A DNA stretch of 64,000 bases from Escherichia phage PECP20, in sequence record OQ873415.1; one strand, 5' to 3'. Position 1 is the stretch's first letter, and every line of letters begins with the position of its first letter. Positions 3,556-58,601 of the stretch are shown here, piece after piece. A program made the position numbers and the translations under genes. A model generated the notes under the pieces. That model made no database searches and was not told the origin of the DNA. It was given only the letters and a program-made list of their open reading frames with translations.

Positions 3556-3573
3556 GGGAGACCGAAGTCTCCC
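3556..3573 (-). terminator. Rho-independent terminator after gene 32
   Basis: Minus strand GGGAGAC-UUCG-GUCUCCC followed by UUUUG, immediately after stop. Confidence 0.65.
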
Positions 3574-3579
3574 GATTTA

Positions 3580-4482
3580 TTATAGACCAGCTAACAGGTC
3601 ATCGAGGTCGCCATCATCAGAGGATGAGGTAGAGCTCATGAAGTCATCTTCAGTTTTTGCAGAACTAAAGGCTTCCATGTCTTTATCAAAATCGTCAAGG
3701 TCAGAAGCAACTTTATCTGCAACAGAAGCTGCTGCGGCTGCTGCACCACCAAGAGCGGCAGTACCAAGAACCTTAGCGAAAGATTCATTTAATTTTTCAA
3801 AGGATTTGAACTGGTCTTTAGCCGTCAAAGTAGTAAGGTCTACCATCTGGTCATATAGTTCTTTCTGGAATGCTTCGTCATTAATACGAGGAATTTCAGA
3901 TTGACCCAAGAATTTAGATTCGTCGTAGTTGCTAAAACCAGAAACCTGCTTAGCTTTCAGAACGAAGTTAGCACCTTCAAACGGACAAGTAACATCAACT
4001 GGAGTTTCACCCATTTCGGTATCAACTGCAATCATTGCATTGATTTTGTCCCAAATCTTTTTACCGAAACGATATTTAAATACTTTACCTTCGTTATCTG
4101 GAGCTTGAGGGTCTTTAACAACCAGAATATTAGCCCAATAAGAAGTTTTACGTTTCAGTTGAGAATATTCAGTTTTGTTGGTATTGTACAGGTCATTTTT
4201 ACTAATGTACTGACATACAGGACAAGAGTCGTAATCACCATGTGTAGAAGAGCAATTTTCAATATACCATTTACCATTTTTCTTGAAACCGTGGTTAACA
4301 AGAATTGCAAATGGTAGTGCATCATCAGTTTTTGCTGGCAAGAAACGAATTACCGCTTGACCATTACCTGATGCATCTAGCTTCAGCTTCCATTCGCCTT
4401 TATCTTCTGAAGAGAAACCTTTGTTACCGTTCAGTTTAGCCATTTGAGCAGCGAGGTCAGCAGTAGATTTACGTTTAAACAT
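3580..4482 (-). CDS. 32: Single-stranded DNA-binding protein gp32
   Basis: 300 aa; [23 protein letters not shown]... zinc-binding Cys/His cluster and acidic Ser/Asp-rich C-terminus as in T4 gp32. Confidence 0.95.
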
Positions 4483-5252: not shown

Positions 5253-5587
5253 AATAAGAAATCTAACGTATTAGTTTTTTCGCCACGAGCAACTGATGGG
5301 CGAAGCATGTTTTCGTCAATTGCTTCGCTTGTAATTTTTTCAACAATTCCTGTAGGAATAAATTTAGCAAATTGTGTTTCTGGAATAGAATTTTCTTCCA
5401 AGAAAGCAGTTGTTGCTTCTAAATAAGACATACCAAATTGTTCAACCATGGATTCGATAATGAATCCGTTTTCTTGGCGGTCAAGCAATTTAGCGATATC
5501 ATCTTTATCGTGTTTTACTGCTAATTCTTGTTCAGATAAACCGGTCTCATCAACCGGTTTAATATCACTTAGTGAAAACTGTGTCAT
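5249..5587 (-). CDS. 33: Late transcription co-activator gp33
   Basis: 112 aa (T4 gp33 is 112 aa); acidic; ATGA overlap with gene 59. Confidence 0.8.
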   Translation of the reverse strand: MTQFSLSDIKPVDETGLSEQELAVKHDKDDIAKLLDRQENGFIIESMVEQFGMSYLEATTAFLEENSIPETQFAKFIPTGIVEKITSEAIDENMLRPSVARGEKTNTLDFLL

Positions 5588-15822: not shown

Positions 15823-15827
15823 TAAAA

Positions 15828-15841
15828 GGGCCTTCGGGCCC
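15828..15841 (+). terminator. GC stem-loop between genes 37 and 38 (no U-tract; possible RNA stabiliser or weak terminator)
   Basis: GGGCC-TTCG-GGCCC 5 nt after gene 37 stop, followed by SD GGAGG of gene 38. Confidence 0.4.
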
Positions 15842-15852
15842 TGGAGGTTTAT

Positions 15853-17337: not shown

Positions 17338-17610
17338 TTAGTTGTTAGAATACATCGTCAAATGGCGATAAATATTTTCAAAACCTTCATTGAATTCACT
17401 AATCAGTGTTTTCTTTTCTTCGGCAGTTAAATTTGTAATTAGTTTTCTGAACGAATTCTGATTTAGCTGCCGACCATCTTTTTTAATTCCAATCTCATTC
17501 AAGAATCCGATGAAATTTGCTCGGTCTTCAACAATATCTTCCCTAGAGAATTTAATCAAAATAGAAGCAATAGTAATAATTTCACGTACGATTTCAATGT
17601 CTTTATTCAT
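17338..17610 (-). CDS. asiA: Anti-sigma70 factor AsiA
   Basis: 90 aa; MNKDIEIVREIITIASILIKFSREDIVEDRANFIGFLNEIG matches T4 AsiA closely. Confidence 0.9.
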   Translation of the reverse strand: MNKDIEIVREIITIASILIKFSREDIVEDRANFIGFLNEIGIKKDGRQLNQNSFRKLITNLTAEEKKTLISEFNEGFENIYRHLTMYSNN

Positions 17611-19471: not shown

Positions 19472-20104
19472 TCACAGTACGTTAGTTACAAGGGTAATGA
19501 TTTCTTTGGACACATTAGGGAAGTCAATGTAAGTATATTTACCACCGATTTTAATCTTAACATCATTTTCAAGAGAAGTAAACAGCTTTGATTCAGTTTC
19601 TGACATGTTGTATGCAAAGATTCTAAGAGCGCCATCTCGTCGAATTTCAATTTGGCGAATGCCTAGAACTCGTTTAGCGAATCGAACTTCTAAGTTACTA
19701 CGGTTTTCACCAATTTCTTTAACTTCAACTTTATCTTTAATATTTTCAAAAACAAAGTTCGCTAGTTCATGCATTTCAGGAGTAACTCCACGTGCTTTTC
19801 TGGTGTTACGTTTCTGGAGAAGTTCTGGAGCATTTTCTTGAGCAAATAGGTCTGCAGCTTTTTGGATAATATCCATTGCTTCGCCGGTTGCCACAAGTCC
19901 ATCACCGGATTTTTCGACTAAACCTTTTTTAATCAATACACCAATGTTAGAGTTAACAACCGATGCATTGTATTCCGCTTTCAGAGCTTCACGGACATTG
20001 GCAGCAGTGGTGAAGTTGTTCTTAATGATATAAACCATTATTGCAGCAGTTTTTTCATTCAGAGCGTTTTCAGAAGCTTTGATGATGTAAGTAACTTTAG
20101 ACAT
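19472..20104 (-). CDS. motA: Middle-transcription activator MotA
   Basis: 210 aa (T4 MotA 211 aa); N-terminus MSKVTYIIKAS...; early promoter at 20141-20169. Confidence 0.85.
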   Translation of the reverse strand: MSKVTYIIKASENALNEKTAAIMVYIIKNNFTTAANVREALKAEYNASVVNSNIGVLIKKGLVEKSGDGLVATGEAMDIIQKAADLFAQENAPELLQKRNTRKARGVTPEMHELANFVFENIKDKVEVKEIGENRSNLEVRFAKRVLGIRQIEIRRDGALRIFAYNMSETESKLFTSLENDVKIKIGGKYTYIDFPNVSKEIITLVTNVL

Positions 20105-21939: not shown

Positions 21940-22080
21940 TCACCATATTAATGAACGAATAACCATTATAACATCTGAAATGAAAAGCACTACTTGGATT
22001 AGTCCAAACATCACACCGTAGTACAGAATCGTAAACAACAACAAGAGCCCGAAGGCTCCTGCTAAGATTTTCTTAATCAT
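21940..22080 (-). CDS. small hydrophobic protein (46 aa), T4 ac/stp position
   Basis: Hand-translated: MIKKILAGAFGLLLLFTILYYGVMFGLIQVVLFISDVIMVIRSLIW; ATG overlaps upstream stop (TAATG); below ORF-track size cut-off. Confidence 0.35.
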   Translation of the reverse strand: MIKKILAGAFGLLLLFTILYYGVMFGLIQVVLFISDVIMVIRSLIW

Positions 22081-24385: not shown

Positions 24386-24401
24386 GGGGACCGAAGTCCC
24401 C
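24386..24401 (-). terminator. Rho-independent terminator after rIIB
   Basis: Minus strand GGGGAC-UUCG-GUCCCC followed by UUUUUUC. Confidence 0.65.
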
Positions 24402-28997: not shown

Positions 28998-29015
28998 AAG
29001 CTCCTAAAGGAGCTT
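28998..29015 (-). terminator. Stem-loop overlapping gene 39 stop, followed by U-rich tract
   Basis: Plus text aagctcc-taaa-ggagctt; separates gene 39 from the glycosyltransferase gene. Confidence 0.4.
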
Positions 29016-30831
29016 AGGACATCCATTCTTTACGAAGTTCTGAATCATCACCCAACAACATTTCAAAGAGTTCTTTCCAATTTTCAGGAAGTTTAACTAC
29101 GTCGTACACAGGGTTCTGAATCATTTCACGATACTCTGACTTTTCAAGGGAGCCTAATCCCTTGATGTATCGAATACTATGCTTAGGCAGTGTATCTTTA
29201 ACTTCTTCATACTCAGCTACAGTATAAAACCATTTTTGAGTTTTGCCAATTTGTGCAATAATTACAGGTGTTTTAACAAAGCGAATACGTCCTTGTTCAA
29301 ACAATTCAGGCCAATTACTAAAGAAAGCAAGCAAAGCCGGATAGATACTTCCAAGACCGTCATGATCGGCATCGGTCATAATTGCAATATTACGATAGTT
29401 CGTATTCTCTGCCTTTTCACCAAGAATAAGACCTGTGATAGCACAGATATCGAATAACTCTTTGTTCTTCATCATATCAGCATATGACATACCCCAGCTA
29501 TTCATCACCTTACCACGTAATGGGAATCCACCGTGTAGTTCACGGTCACGAACATCAATGAGATATCCAATTGCCGAATCACCTTCTGTTAAGAACAATG
29601 TCGTATCTGCATCTTTACCACATTGGTTAGCTTTAATATGCTTATGAACCTTAGCTTTAGTTGCCTTTTTAGCTGCTTTAGTTTCTGCAGCCTTTTCTGC
29701 TGCCAATTTACGAGCTAATGCTGCTTCAACAATAGGCATAATCAAGGCTTCGTTTTTAAGAAGTGCCTGGGCAATTTTCTTAGCATCTAATTGGATATGA
29801 TTACGAATATCACCATACGTTGACGTTAAACGTTCTTTAGTCTGAGAATCAAAACGCATGTTGCTCATGTCTCGAATAAACATCAACATTGTGAGGCATT
29901 CTTTAACACGAGCTTTAGTGACTTCAATACCCTTATATTTCTTTTTAATACCTGGCAAAAGATGTTCGCAGATATCATCCATTACACATTCAACATGATG
30001 ACCACCATTTTTAGTATGGATGTTATTCACATAAGTTAAATGACGGAAGCCATCTGGTGATGTTGTGAATGCTATAGAGACTTTATCATTTTCTTGAATG
30101 ATGTTATCTTCACCAAATTGTTTAGCAAATCGTTTAAAATTACCATCGACCTTTTTACCATTAAATGTGAACTTGATATCAGGATAAACGACTGCCAATG
30201 TTTGAAGTCGATCTAAAGTAATATCTAAATAAATTTGAGATAAATTATGCTCTTCAAATGAAGTGAAATCAGGAGTGAAGATTACTTTAGTGCCTTTACC
30301 TTTAGATTTCTTAGAAGACCATGATTTGTTTTCCATTCCGTTTGAACAGTTAACAGTGATTTCATTTTCGCCATCTGACGTGATGCCTGTAAACAACGTA
30401 GAGAAGATATTAGTTAAACTACTCCCGACGCCGTTCATACCACCAGTCTTGCGTTCAGAGTCATCACCAAAGTTACCACCGGCCTTTGGAATAGTCCAGG
30501 CTGCTACAGGCCCAGGAATTTGTTCACCTGTTTGGTCGGTAACTAAACCTTGAGGAATACCACGTCCGTTATCTTCCACCGAAACTTGATTATTTTTAAT
30601 TTGCACATCAATTTTATTTGCAAACTTAAATGATGTACGAATAGCTTCATCAACCGAGTTGTCAATAATCTCATCGATTAATTTAACCAGGCCAGGAACA
30701 TATTCAACTTGTTGATATTTACCAAACAAAAAACGCTCGTGGGCTTCTTTAGCAGAAGAACCAATATACATACCACTACGTTTCTTAATATGTTCTACAT
30801 CTGACAATACCTTAATTTCATTTTTAATCAT
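29014..30831 (-). CDS. 39: DNA topoisomerase II large subunit, unsplit 39+60 fusion
   Basis: 605 aa single ORF; GyrB-like ATPase N-terminus plus TOPRIM/C-terminal region that in T4 is encoded by separate gene 60. Confidence 0.9.
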   Translation of the reverse strand: MIKNEIKVLSDVEHIKKRSGMYIGSSAKEAHERFLFGKYQQVEYVPGLVKLIDEIIDNSVDEAIRTSFKFANKIDVQIKNNQVSVEDNGRGIPQGLVTDQTGEQIPGPVAAWTIPKAGGNFGDDSERKTGGMNGVGSSLTNIFSTLFTGITSDGENEITVNCSNGMENKSWSSKKSKGKGTKVIFTPDFTSFEEHNLSQIYLDITLDRLQTLAVVYPDIKFTFNGKKVDGNFKRFAKQFGEDNIIQENDKVSIAFTTSPDGFRHLTYVNNIHTKNGGHHVECVMDDICEHLLPGIKKKYKGIEVTKARVKECLTMLMFIRDMSNMRFDSQTKERLTSTYGDIRNHIQLDAKKIAQALLKNEALIMPIVEAALARKLAAEKAAETKAAKKATKAKVHKHIKANQCGKDADTTLFLTEGDSAIGYLIDVRDRELHGGFPLRGKVMNSWGMSYADMMKNKELFDICAITGLILGEKAENTNYRNIAIMTDADHDGLGSIYPALLAFFSNWPELFEQGRIRFVKTPVIIAQIGKTQKWFYTVAEYEEVKDTLPKHSIRYIKGLGSLEKSEYREMIQNPVYDVVKLPENWKELFEMLLGDDSELRKEWMS

Positions 30832-30853
30832 GTTGTCTCCTCGTTATGAAGGT

Positions 30854-30880
30854 ATTCTATCATCCGAAATCTAAAGCAAA
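30854..30880 (-). promoter_or_regulatory. Middle (MotA-dependent) promoter for gene 39: MotA box TTTGCTTTA, 12-nt spacer, -10 TAGAAT
   Basis: Minus strand TTTGCTTTAgatttcggatgaTAGAAT; matches (a/t)(a/t)(a/t)TGCTT(t/c)A consensus; ~20 nt upstream of gene 39 ATG. Confidence 0.45.
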
Positions 30881-30882
30881 AA

Positions 30883-30894
30883 GGGCCGAAGCCC
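30883..30894 (-). terminator. Terminator hairpin whose U-tract overlaps the MotA box of the gene 39 middle promoter
   Basis: Minus strand GGGC-UUCG-GCCC followed by UUUUUGCUUUA. Confidence 0.5.
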
Positions 30895-31317
30895 TTATTT
30901 AAATTTAATTTTCTGAAGTGCATCAATTGCAGCCAAACGCCCTTGTTCACTTTTAACCGTAATGACCACATCACCTGATACGATCACTGAACCATCAACA
31001 AATTCTATAGAGCCTTTTTTGAAATCGACAGCTGTATCTGATTCCGGAACTTCTTCAAAGAATTTAAATTCTGCACCATAAATCAGAATATCACCTTGCA
31101 TACTAATGATTGTACGTCCAGGTCCATCGGTTTCAGCGGCAATCATTGAAACACCGTAGCCAATCATCTCTTCTACAATAAAATCTCTTGATAATAAAAC
31201 TGTATGCAGAGTAGTGTTAAGACGTTTACCAGTTGTATTAAGAATTCTCAAGAAATTATCTTCTTGACCTTTGATAATACGATATTTCTTACCAACTTCA
31301 AAACCTTTAAAAGCCAT
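30895..31317 (-). CDS. hypothetical protein (39.1/goF region)
   Basis: 140-aa ORF; terminator hairpin directly after stop. Confidence 0.5.
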   Translation of the reverse strand: MAFKGFEVGKKYRIIKGQEDNFLRILNTTGKRLNTTLHTVLLSRDFIVEEMIGYGVSMIAAETDGPGRTIISMQGDILIYGAEFKFFEEVPESDTAVDFKKGSIEFVDGSVIVSGDVVITVKSEQGRLAAIDALQKIKFK

Positions 31318-31924: not shown

Positions 31925-32178
31925 TAAGTTGTACCGTTTTCAGTGATTTCACGGAAGATACCATAGATAGGCATTTCATCACCGAGTTTTTCGTAAACGT
32001 AAACCACTTCAGTGTAGCATAAAAATTCAGTCCAGTTTTTCTGTACAACAACTAAATCAGGATTAAACAGAACATCTTCAAACTCATCGATGTTTGAATC
32101 AGTAGTTACGTTTTTAATGATTTGACGTTTCATAATATTCTCCTCTTGTTTTGATAGGTCTATAGTATCATAGACCAT
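31906..32178 (-). CDS. hypothetical protein
   Basis: 90-aa ORF with early promoter at 32161-32190. Confidence 0.45.
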
Positions 32179-32190
32179 AGTTGTTGTACA

Positions 32191-32715
32191 TCATTTTAGC
32201 AAAATAAAATCAACTTGTTCTGCCAATGAACGTCTAAACATTAATTGACAACTTCCGAGGATGAAATCAGGTGCTTCATAGACCGCGATGTAGTATCCTT
32301 TAGCTTTCAAGAGTTCAACATCCACCTGGTCATCAAACCATGCATAAACCGCGTCAACGCTTTCAAATCCAAAATAGAACCCTTGAGCCCAATCTTCACT
32401 CAATTCAAATGTGTACTCAATTCTATGGTATCTTAAGATATTTTGTTCAAGAAGTTTGTCTTCATTTACTGTAGGACGATTAGGGACATTATAGTTGTCG
32501 CCGTGATGGTAGAAGTTACCTGAGATTATTCCATGTTTATCAAGGAACTCCCATGTTTCTTCAGAGTTGTCAGTGCCAGACCAACCGTAAGGTGAGCGTG
32601 GTTCTTTATTCCAAGAGGTTTCCCAAATTCTGACGGCTTTACCGTCTTCGATAGCAATTCCTGGTAATGATTCACGTTGAGTACAAAAACTACGTTCTAC
32701 GCGGTAAACTAACAT
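32191..32715 (-). CDS. hypothetical protein
   Basis: 174-aa ORF, Trp-rich. Confidence 0.5.
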   Translation of the reverse strand: MLVYRVERSFCTQRESLPGIAIEDGKAVRIWETSWNKEPRSPYGWSGTDNSEETWEFLDKHGIISGNFYHHGDNYNVPNRPTVNEDKLLEQNILRYHRIEYTFELSEDWAQGFYFGFESVDAVYAWFDDQVDVELLKAKGYYIAVYEAPDFILGSCQLMFRRSLAEQVDFILLK

Positions 32716-33203: not shown

Positions 33204-33689
33204 TTAAGCTTTACGAGGAGACACATAGCGAGTGATTTCAGATTCTTTAACAACTCGGAAGTCACCTAAGAATACGATATTGTATAACTTTTCACCATCT
33301 TCTACCCATTGGTCACTAATGAAGCCACACATAGTATCAGTTTTGCTTGGATAACCGTATTCATCGATGAAGTCAAATTCTTTATCAGTCTGGAATTCAA
33401 CACCTTTACACAAGGCCCATTTGAACTGTGCATTAGGCTCTGTGGATTCAACTTTTTCTCTTGAAGCAAAAGCACCACTCACAGGAGTTTCCAAGAACTT
33501 TGCACGAACATAAGCAAATTGGGTTTCCATTGACCCAAGACTAGGAATAATACGAACTTTTACCTCAGAATCTTCATCTTTAACACCTTCTTTAAGTTGA
33601 ATACTTACAACTTCGACCAATTTTCCTGCTGCTTTAGAACGAGATTTGTTAGATACGCGAACGATTTCACCAATAATACCAAGATTCAT
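33204..33689 (-). CDS. hypothetical protein, member 2 of tandem paralogue triplet
   Basis: 161 aa; same motifs as 32775-33194. Confidence 0.5.
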   Translation of the reverse strand: MNLGIIGEIVRVSNKSRSKAAGKLVEVVSIQLKEGVKDEDSEVKVRIIPSLGSMETQFAYVRAKFLETPVSGAFASREKVESTEPNAQFKWALCKGVEFQTDKEFDFIDEYGYPSKTDTMCGFISDQWVEDGEKLYNIVFLGDFRVVKESEITRYVSPRKA

Positions 33690-39810: not shown

Positions 39811-40122
39811 CTAATCACAACTCCCAGAGTCCGAACTACAATCGGAATAACTTGAACCAGAATCTCCAGACCAGGATGATACGTAAGAATGATTATAACT
39901 TGAAGAGTTTGAAGCAGACTTAGGACGAATAACTTCTTCCATCACGCCGTCACCAATATATTCCCAACTTTTTTCATGTGTATCAGGAATAGGCATCATA
40001 CCTTCGCCTGGTTTAACAACAAATAACTTCTTCAGCATCGTAAGCATTAATTGTTCCTCGAACAAAACGAACACCACCATCATCCCAACGGATTTCGGCA
40101 TTAAATTTGACGTCTTCACCAT
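39811..40122 (-). CDS. hypothetical protein with Ser-rich low-complexity C-terminus; true start uncertain
   Basis: ORF track 103 aa; C-terminus KSASNSSSYNHSYVSSWSGDSGSSYSDCSSDSGSCD; overlaps upstream ORF in another frame. Confidence 0.3.
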   Translation of the reverse strand: MVKTSNLMPKSVGMMVVFVLFEEQLMLTMLKKLFVVKPGEGMMPIPDTHEKSWEYIGDGVMEEVIRPKSASNSSSYNHSYVSSWSGDSGSSYSDCSSDSGSCD

Positions 40123-40240
40123 CCATCATGAATGAGTGTACGACTACGTCATCATAATATCCAAGACCGTATTTCAGCGAAACTTCTTGTGCAATCAAAG
40201 CGCCTAATGTGTTATTAGGTTTAATCCAACGATTTAACAT
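40013..40240 (-). CDS. hypothetical small protein
   Basis: 75-aa ORF ending in CC; overlaps 39811-40122 ORF. Confidence 0.3.
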   Translation of the reverse strand: MLNRWIKPNNTLGALIAQEVSLKYGLGYYDDVVVHSFMMDGEDVKFNAEIRWDDGGVRFVRGTINAYDAEEVICC

Positions 40241-40314
40241 ATTGTTCTCCTCTTGAGTAAGTAAGAATATCTTAACATAGTTTTTAGTGGATGTAAACTC
40301 TAGAAACGAAAAAA

Positions 40315-40332
40315 GGAATCCCGAAGGATTCC
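40315..40332 (-). terminator. Rho-independent terminator after soc
   Basis: Minus strand GGAAUCC-UUCG-GGAUUCC followed by UUUUU. Confidence 0.6.
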
Positions 40333-40341
40333 TTAAATTAT

Positions 40342-58520: not shown

Positions 58521-58568
58521 TTAATTTCCTTTAGACGAGTTATTGTCTTTTGTTTGTTGATGAACTTA

Positions 58569-58588
58569 TTATACTCCAAATGGGACCG
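58569..58588 (-). terminator. Stem-loop after regA, upstream of gene 43
   Basis: Minus strand AAUGGGAC-UUCG-GUCCCAUU followed by UGGAGUAUAAU. Confidence 0.5.
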
Positions 58589-58601
58589 AAGTCCCATTGC
58601 T

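Follow-up and report, generated by a model that had tools for sequence, protein, structure and literature searches.

The stretch of DNA analysed here, called the window below, comprises 64,000 nucleotides of Escherichia phage PECP20 (OQ873415.1). PECP20 is an RB69-like Mosigvirus, one of the T4-like phages. The gene 39 region was read on the minus strand, and its elements were placed base by base. Gene 39 (29014..30831, minus strand, ATG at 30831) encodes the large subunit of topoisomerase II as a fused 39+60 protein of 605 amino acids. It is preceded in the early region by an open reading frame (ORF) of 140 amino acids, the equivalent of RB69ORF005c (30895..31317, minus strand). The minus-strand sequence joining the two genes reads ...AAATAAGGGCTTCGGCCCTTTTTGCTTTAGATTTCGGATGATAGAATACCTTCATAACGAGGAGACAACATG... 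and begins with a hairpin closed by a C(UUCG)G tetraloop, AAGGGC-TTCG-GCCCTT (30881..30896), a predicted intrinsic terminator or attenuator. Its G-C core (30883-30894) consists of GGGC (30894-30891), the TTCG loop (30890-30887) and GCCC (30886-30883). The TAA stop of the 140-aa ORF (30897-30895) gives two A that lengthen the stem, and with the flanking AA/TT it counts 6 bp (30896-30881), four G-C and two A-U pairs below the UUCG loop. A run of five T (30882-30878) follows, overlapped by the MotA box TTTGCTTTA (30880-30872). In this dual-use segment (30872..30882), the U-rich tail of the predicted terminator is also the −30 element of a middle promoter. A 12-nt spacer (30860..30871) separates the box from a sigma-70-type −10 element, TAGAAT (30854..30859). 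By analogy with the T4 P39 start, transcription would begin at an A 7 nt past the −10 element (30847), and a start at or near this base would give the middle mRNA of gene 39 a leader of about 16 nt. The Shine-Dalgarno sequence GAGGAG (30837..30842) completes the cassette, all elements of which fit in the 63-nt gap 30894-30832. Directly past the gene 39 stop lies another terminator-like hairpin, AAGCTCC-TTTA-GGAGCTT (28998..29015, minus strand). The nearest predicted upstream early promoter (32155..32205, minus strand) is identical in sequence to RB69 Pe:6863, a prediction from the Nolan 2006 supplement (PMC1524935).

The original prediction had placed a terminator hairpin fused to a middle promoter at 30854-30894, and these positions span exactly GGGC through TAGAAT. 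Its minus-strand hairpin GGGC-UUCG-GCCC lies at 30894-30883, the 12 nt that it gave from box to −10 are the spacer 30871-30860, and its distance of about 20 nt from TAGAAT to the gene 39 ATG is 22 nt when counted, with the Shine-Dalgarno sequence inside. The claim that the U-tract is simultaneously the MotA box has to be narrowed. The box does overlap the tract, but of its 9 bp no more than the first three T belong to the run of five, and its core GCTTT makes up the distal portion of the terminator's U-rich tail.

As for the promoter half, TTTGCTTTA is a perfect match to the MotA box consensus (a/t)(a/t)(a/t)TGCTT(t/c)A, centred near −30, which is quoted in PMC2988021 and PMC1524935. TAGAAT conforms to the −10 pattern TAnnnT and, at 12 nt downstream of the box, to the rule of 12 +/- 1 bp between the two elements (PMC2988021). 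The factors acting in trans are encoded in the window as well. The activator that reads the box, MotA, is encoded at 19472..20104 on the minus strand (MotA_activ and MotCF, PF09114 2.4e-39 and PF09158 2.2e-8), and AsiA, the co-activator and anti-sigma factor needed at middle promoters, at 17338..17610 on the same strand (PF09010 6.7e-33). A tblastn search of the phage collection recovered MotA homologues from over 1,100 records, with Escherichia, Klebsiella, Acinetobacter, Aeromonas and other bacteria as hosts. A protein search of viral contigs with MotA returned two near-identical contigs, too few for a co-occurrence test.

In T4, P39 is an identified middle promoter with its start at 5349, a position that goes back to Guild et al. 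1988 (PMC2988021, Table 1). Counted on the T4 sequence, 5349 is the seventh base past the homologous TATAAT, so the mapped T4 start belongs to the homologous −10 and box. In RB69, Nolan et al. 2006 (PMC1524935) list a predicted middle promoter, Pm:5538 (5498-5538, minus strand, score 16.8), with the sequence GCCCTTTTTGCTTTAGATTTCGGATGATAGAATACCTTCAT, exactly the element of the window; this model ends one base beyond the likely start at 30847. The promoter half is thus well supported as a putative middle promoter of the MotA/AsiA type by its orthology with T4 P39, by RB69 Pm:5538, by the presence of motA and asiA and by the geometry from box to −10, in agreement with the original prediction. 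Sequence, conservation, geometry, trans factors and the mapped T4 orthologue are all matters of direct observation.

The comparison with the T4 gene 39 promoter region, which had been proposed as a check, reveals the same layout in the same place. T4 P39 reads AAGGCC-TTCG-GGCCTT-TAGCTTTA-TGATTACCGGAG-TATAAT, where TGATTACCGGAG is the 12-nt spacer, followed by 27 nt and the gene 39 ATG. Both phages have, 5' of gene 39, a C(UUCG)G hairpin, a T-rich linker, a (T/A)GCTTTA box, a spacer of 12 nt, TAnAAT, a Shine-Dalgarno sequence and the ATG, and both encode MotA and AsiA. The stem is GGCC/GGCC in T4 and GGGC/GCCC in the window, a compensatory swap. The T4 box TAGCTTTA has A for the consensus T, whereas the window carries the consensus TTTGCTTTA; the −10 element is TATAAT in T4 and TAGAAT in the window, and the window leader is 5 nt shorter. 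The upstream gene is 39.1 in T4 and an unrelated 140-aa ORF in the window, and gene 39 is fused with gene 60 in the window, unlike in T4.

Two close relatives carry the cassette unchanged. The gene 39 region is 99% identical to that of phage ATK47 and 97% identical to that of RB69 (genus Mosigvirus), and all three phages share an identical stretch of 82 nt that runs from the 3' end of the preceding ORF up to the gene 39 ATG. In RB69, whose 82-nt stretch is therefore that of the window, the published terminator 5535-5546 and Pm:5538 overlap by 4 nt, on GCCC. The two features stand in separate tables of Nolan et al. 2006 (PMC1524935), and a comment on their overlap was not found in the accessible part of that article.

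The design recurs at other loci. A hairpin check covered the first 50 kb of T4, which hold 29 of the 58 listed middle promoters. Among these 29, a C(UUCG)G hairpin runs into the box at P39, P47 and PmobB, and at P43 such a hairpin overlaps the upstream promoter region. A search of T4 1-50 kb with a relaxed pattern returned only P39, P47 and PmobB, all on the minus strand and all mapped, and none on the plus strand. T4 P47, a locus outside the window, has a nearly identical design (AAAGGGC-TTCG-GCCCTTT-AGCTTTA-N12-TATAAT), and RB69 P47 reads AGGAACTC-TTCG-GAGTTCCT-TTTTTGCTTTA-N11-TAAAAT. There too the published terminator (40044-40061) overlaps the predicted promoter (Pm:40046).

Furthermore, the arrangement belongs to a class with a name. 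Cassettes of a stem-loop and an early promoter (PeSL) were defined in RB49 and phi1 (Arbiol et al. 2010, PMC2839356), and the drop in lacZ expression caused by one PeSL stem-loop was similar to that with rrnB T1, a strong terminator (PMC2839356). The work of Comeau et al. 2014 added PST/T4 and nt-1 and named the version with a Mot box PmSL, 'promoter-middle stem loop' (PMC4122927). At gene 39, a hairpin adjoins and overlaps a promoter, with a Shine-Dalgarno sequence and then the start codon behind them, all in an intergenic gap, as in the definition of PmSLs and PeSLs (PMC4122927, PMC2839356). The gap may lie at the edge of a variable region, as those of the class do, and the TGCTT Mot box with its −10 element is that of the PmSL version. 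PmSLs have been described in Vibrio phage nt-1, and PeSLs are found mostly inside hyperplastic regions before ORFans, whereas the cassette of the window serves a conserved core replication gene. The cassette is therefore already known: its T4 promoter is mapped, both halves are predicted in RB69, and the class has been named.

Other hairpins of this kind were seen in the window. C(UUCG)G hairpins are common throughout the early region, and intergenic ones lie at 24387-24401 and 22039-22064 (UUCG on the minus strand) and at 15827-15842 (UUCG on the plus strand). A PeSL-type arrangement occurs on the minus strand at 40240-40334, with AAGGAATCC-TTCG-GGATTCCTT, a T-run, GTTTACA-N17-TAAGAT, a Shine-Dalgarno sequence and an ATG, where GTTTACA-N17-TAAGAT is an early promoter in the style of T4. 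The hairpin at 3556-3573 is followed by GTTTAC some 30 nt later. The minus strand at 58566-58600 reads TAAAGCAATGGGAC-TTCG-GTCCCATTTGGAGTATAAT, homologous to the C(UUCG)G hairpin that T4 has between the cistrons of regA and gene 43 (AGCAAGGGGCTTCGGCCCCTTATTTGGAGTATAAT), together with the −10 element of P43. This hairpin overlaps the upstream promoter region and has ACTT where T4 has GCTT, about 17 nt from the −10 element and too far for a standard box. Finally, the hairpin TTGGGTCAATGGAAACCCAA at 33519-33538 (minus strand) is directly followed by TTTGCTTAT, which is close to a MotA box; among the 30 nt that follow, no obvious −10 element with suitable spacing was seen.

A wider comparison was made with 48 loci from viral contigs that encode relatives of gp39. 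These loci were fetched and their upstream regions were read; 14 loci were tabulated, namely the window, T4 and 12 others, with gp39 N-termini 63-90% identical to that of the window. The order of hairpin, T-rich linker, GCTT box, −10 element, Shine-Dalgarno sequence and ATG is found in 14 of the 14. GCTT and the −10 element stand 14 nt apart in 12 loci and 15 nt apart in the other two, as required for a spacer of 12-13 bp after TGCTTtA. Likewise, 4-6 nt, nearly all T, separate the G-C core from GCTT in the 14 boxed loci. A MAFFT alignment of 13 of the 14 tabulated loci has GCTTT, TA..AT, GGA and ATG as its invariant columns. The stems vary widely. At least seven distinct G-C cores were found (GGGC, GGCC, GGAGC, GGAGCC, GAGCC, GGGATCC and, in RB43, CCCC), all of them paired, and the loops of the orthologous hairpins include TTCG, TTAG, TACG, TAAC, CTAGT, GTA and GAAA. 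The changes are compensatory, as expected of a terminator structure, the swap from C-G to G-C between T4 and the window being one example.

Some loci depart from this order. RB43, which is reported to have no MotA, keeps the hairpin AAACCCC-GAAA-GGGGTTT, a T-run and TATAAT before its 60plus39 gene (L057, 7120-7330), with TCTTTTT in place of the GCTT box. A phage without MotA that keeps hairpin, T-run and −10 element but no GCTT indicates that the hairpin has a role of its own. In another locus (L018), about 17 nt separate the hairpin from a candidate box, which is weaker, and L024 has no intergenic gap before gene 39; the physical fusion of hairpin and box is hence not obligatory. Three Aeromonas-type loci (L028-L030) are without the hairpin. 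Hairpin and box are separable elements, each conserved for its own reason and usually abutting.

The sequence 5' of the hairpin is unrelated between lineages, and several different genes were seen there. T4 39.1 and the 140-aa ORF, which occupy the same slot, share no similarity. The 140-aa ORF falls in phrog_622 (unknown function), and its C-terminus (residues 102-140) gives a weak match to the PHROG 'goF mRNA metabolism modulator' (E 7.5e-6). The idea that ORF005c is a paralogue of goF was dropped, the match to this PHROG being weak and a BLASTP comparison with the window's own goF not significant (E 0.24).

This turnover of neighbours raises the possibility that the composite is mainly a recombination linker between variable ORFs and the core gene 39, conserved for modular gene shuffling. 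On the upstream side of the hairpin, similarity to the window is about 0.6, and it increases to 0.66-0.82 within gene 39, figures given without a random baseline, and one Tequatrovirus record matches the query over only 34 nt around hairpin and box. Moreover, PeSLs have been proposed as such linkers (PMC4122927, PMC2839356). Nevertheless, the cassette is short, with only about 20-30 nt shared, and stems that differ by lineage would be an obstacle to homologous exchange. A linker would in any case be compatible with a role in transcription. As the main explanation, it is considered unlikely, albeit with some weight.

Turning to the terminator half, the stem is followed by the U-rich UUUUUGCUUU, and the G+C-rich stem-loop and U-rich tract typical of an intrinsic terminator are both in place. 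In RB69, a TransTerm terminator is given at 5535-5546 on the minus strand, with a score of 100, a 4-bp stem and the label '60plus39<--RB69ORF005c', in PMC1524935; its sequence, GGGCTTCGGCCC, is found identically in the window. The ATK47 record has an ARNold terminator annotated at the same spot, with identical sequence. A generic scan called the hairpin terminator-like on both strands, and the plus-strand reading of the palindrome was put aside as irrelevant, all neighbouring genes being on the minus strand. Another RB69 TransTerm terminator (3649-3662) is in the position equivalent to the hairpin that follows gene 39 in the window (29015-28998). The loop of this hairpin is TTTA in the window, whereas RB69 has GCTCC-TTCG-GGAGC there, the genomes being otherwise very close.

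For the hairpin before gene 39, the 4-bp core has an energy of −6.3 kcal/mol and the 6-bp stem one of −8.8 kcal/mol, which is at the weak end for a terminator, and the z-score in a 61-nt context is only −1.8. In addition, G-C interrupts the U-tract after five U. With a short stem and an interrupted U-tract, termination efficiency may be low, and the hairpin is predicted to be probably a partial terminator or attenuator. Termination is predicted from the TransTerm and ARNold calls and from the covariation of the stem. The covariation means that the structure was selected; it is not proof of termination, as protection of the 3' end of the mRNA alone gives the same signal. A scan of 30600-31100 against Rfam (E <= 1) gave one chance snoRNA match elsewhere, and no described RNA family covers the hairpin. 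In the literature consulted, no transcript 5' or 3' ends were found for PECP20 or RB69, nor 3' ends at the gene 39 site in any phage.

These properties leave room for the reading that the hairpin is an RNA stability or processing element only, which blocks 3' exonucleases, with near-complete readthrough and a middle promoter that is merely adjacent. The short stem and modest energy agree with it, and the extraordinary stability of the UUCG tetraloop, not termination, was what first drew notice to it in T4 mRNA (PMC4371310). T4 middle genes are also expressed by extension of early transcripts (PMC2988021), and several other UUCG hairpins in the window have no good U-tract. At gene 39, however, 4-6 mostly-T nucleotides come right after the stem in the 14 boxed orthologues, including those with quite different stems, and RB43 keeps the T-run, though no MotA box imposes T-richness on it. 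The site is called by two terminator predictors, and related PeSL stem-loops do terminate in a reporter assay (PMC2839356). A hairpin devoted to stability only is accordingly held to be improbable.

The frequency of such elements was also estimated. The promoter pattern TGCTTYA-N11-13-TANNNT occurs 14 times in the window for 1.8 expected, an enrichment of about 8-fold. Composites were defined as a hairpin of at least 4 bp, with at least three G-C pairs, ending no more than 9 nt from a TGCTTYA-type promoter. Two were counted in the window, against an average of 0.027 over 300 first-order Markov simulations. The second of the two is the gene 43 hairpin in reverse complement; on the minus strand of the window, gene 39 is the only qualifying fusion of hairpin and promoter. 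Plus-strand matches were discarded, as they have 4-bp stems or are that same reverse complement. In RB69, terminator predictions touch or overlap 3 of the 32 predicted middle promoters, a proportion judged not demonstrably above what compaction yields, intergenic gaps being short. A terminator and a promoter together are expected to be common in the short gaps of these genomes, and their overlap may reflect compaction instead of selected coupling. That TTTGCTTTA is a terminator tail resembling a MotA box by chance, with gene 39 served by readthrough or by a promoter with a −10 element only, is extremely improbable: T-rich tails do sometimes resemble the A/T-rich part of the box and MotA-less RB43 combines a hairpin, a T-run and TATAAT at this position without GCTT, but GCTTT is invariant and its 14-15 nt to the −10 element are fixed across diverged loci, the T4 orthologue is a mapped middle promoter, and MotA and AsiA are encoded in the window.

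Taken together, the cassette is very likely the RB69-lineage form of the T4 gene 39 control region, a stem-loop and middle promoter of the PmSL type that would work as follows. Early in infection, host RNA polymerase would start about 1.3 kb upstream and transcribe cef, goF, the 39.2-like gene and the 140-aa ORF. The equivalent of Pe:6863 is the likely source of the cef-goF-39.2-ORF005c transcripts that reach the hairpin. Past the stop of the 140-aa ORF, the very stable C(UUCG)G hairpin would be transcribed and then UUUUUGCUUU, and a fraction of the polymerases would terminate, with ends that would fall in the UUUUUGCUU tract. The hairpin would then also cap and protect the 3' end of the early mRNA. 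The remaining polymerases would continue into gene 39 by the 'delayed-early' route. After the accumulation of MotA and AsiA, the same DNA would be bound by the AsiA-remodelled sigma-70 holoenzyme and MotA, with MotA on TTTGCTTTA, centred near −30, and sigma region 2 on TAGAAT, 12 bp downstream. Transcription would start about 7 nt past the −10 element, and the short-leader mRNA of gene 39 would end at the hairpin just after the gene. As the hairpin lies upstream of the start, it would be absent from the middle transcript. The implied early unit consists of cef, goF, the 39.2-like gene and the 140-aa ORF and ends at the hairpin; the predicted middle unit is gene 39 alone, closed by the hairpin at 28998..29015.

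In this scheme we infer termination and its efficiency, the exact start and the interplay of early and middle transcription. The overlap of the two signals is possible because the MotA box calls for A/T ahead of TGCTT(T/C)A and the terminator tail for U. The dual use works since the A/T-rich 5' portion of the box may consist entirely of T, and with GCUUU the tail is still U-rich. The description of the site as a compact terminate-and-reinitiate module can accordingly be kept for its layout and predicted terminator. The word 'reinitiate', by contrast, has to be taken as independent initiation that depends on MotA and AsiA, not as recycling of the same polymerase.

A more elaborate proposal is that the overlap of terminator tail and MotA box is a selected switch. 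Occupancy by MotA/AsiA-polymerase would alter the fate of incoming polymerases, by collision or changed termination, and would turn gene 39 from readthrough to promoter-driven expression; the cassette might also be the joint at which 39.1 was exchanged for the 140-aa ORF. This is regarded as highly doubtful. If the switch were true, it would offer a link to an old unexplained report that some delayed-early RNA needs MotA (PMC2988021).

A further observation concerns the leader. The motif GGAG is cut by the T4 endoribonuclease RegB. It is contained in the Shine-Dalgarno sequence GAGGAG of gene 39 in the window (30837-30842), where T4 has GAGGAT, and might make gene 39 mRNA derived from upstream sensitive to RegB in the window's lineage.

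The cassette before gene 39 is real, functional-looking and conserved, but ordinary, and it adds no new principle. It demonstrates that a reading of the bare sequence can recover a genuine regulatory cassette, and the site could serve as a compact insulator-plus-promoter part in phage engineering. Moreover, it illustrates how, in T4-like phages, the close of an early unit and the opening of a middle unit fit into about 40 bp, where one T-rich stretch carries two signals. This design is kept across several genera before a core replication gene and recurs at other loci.
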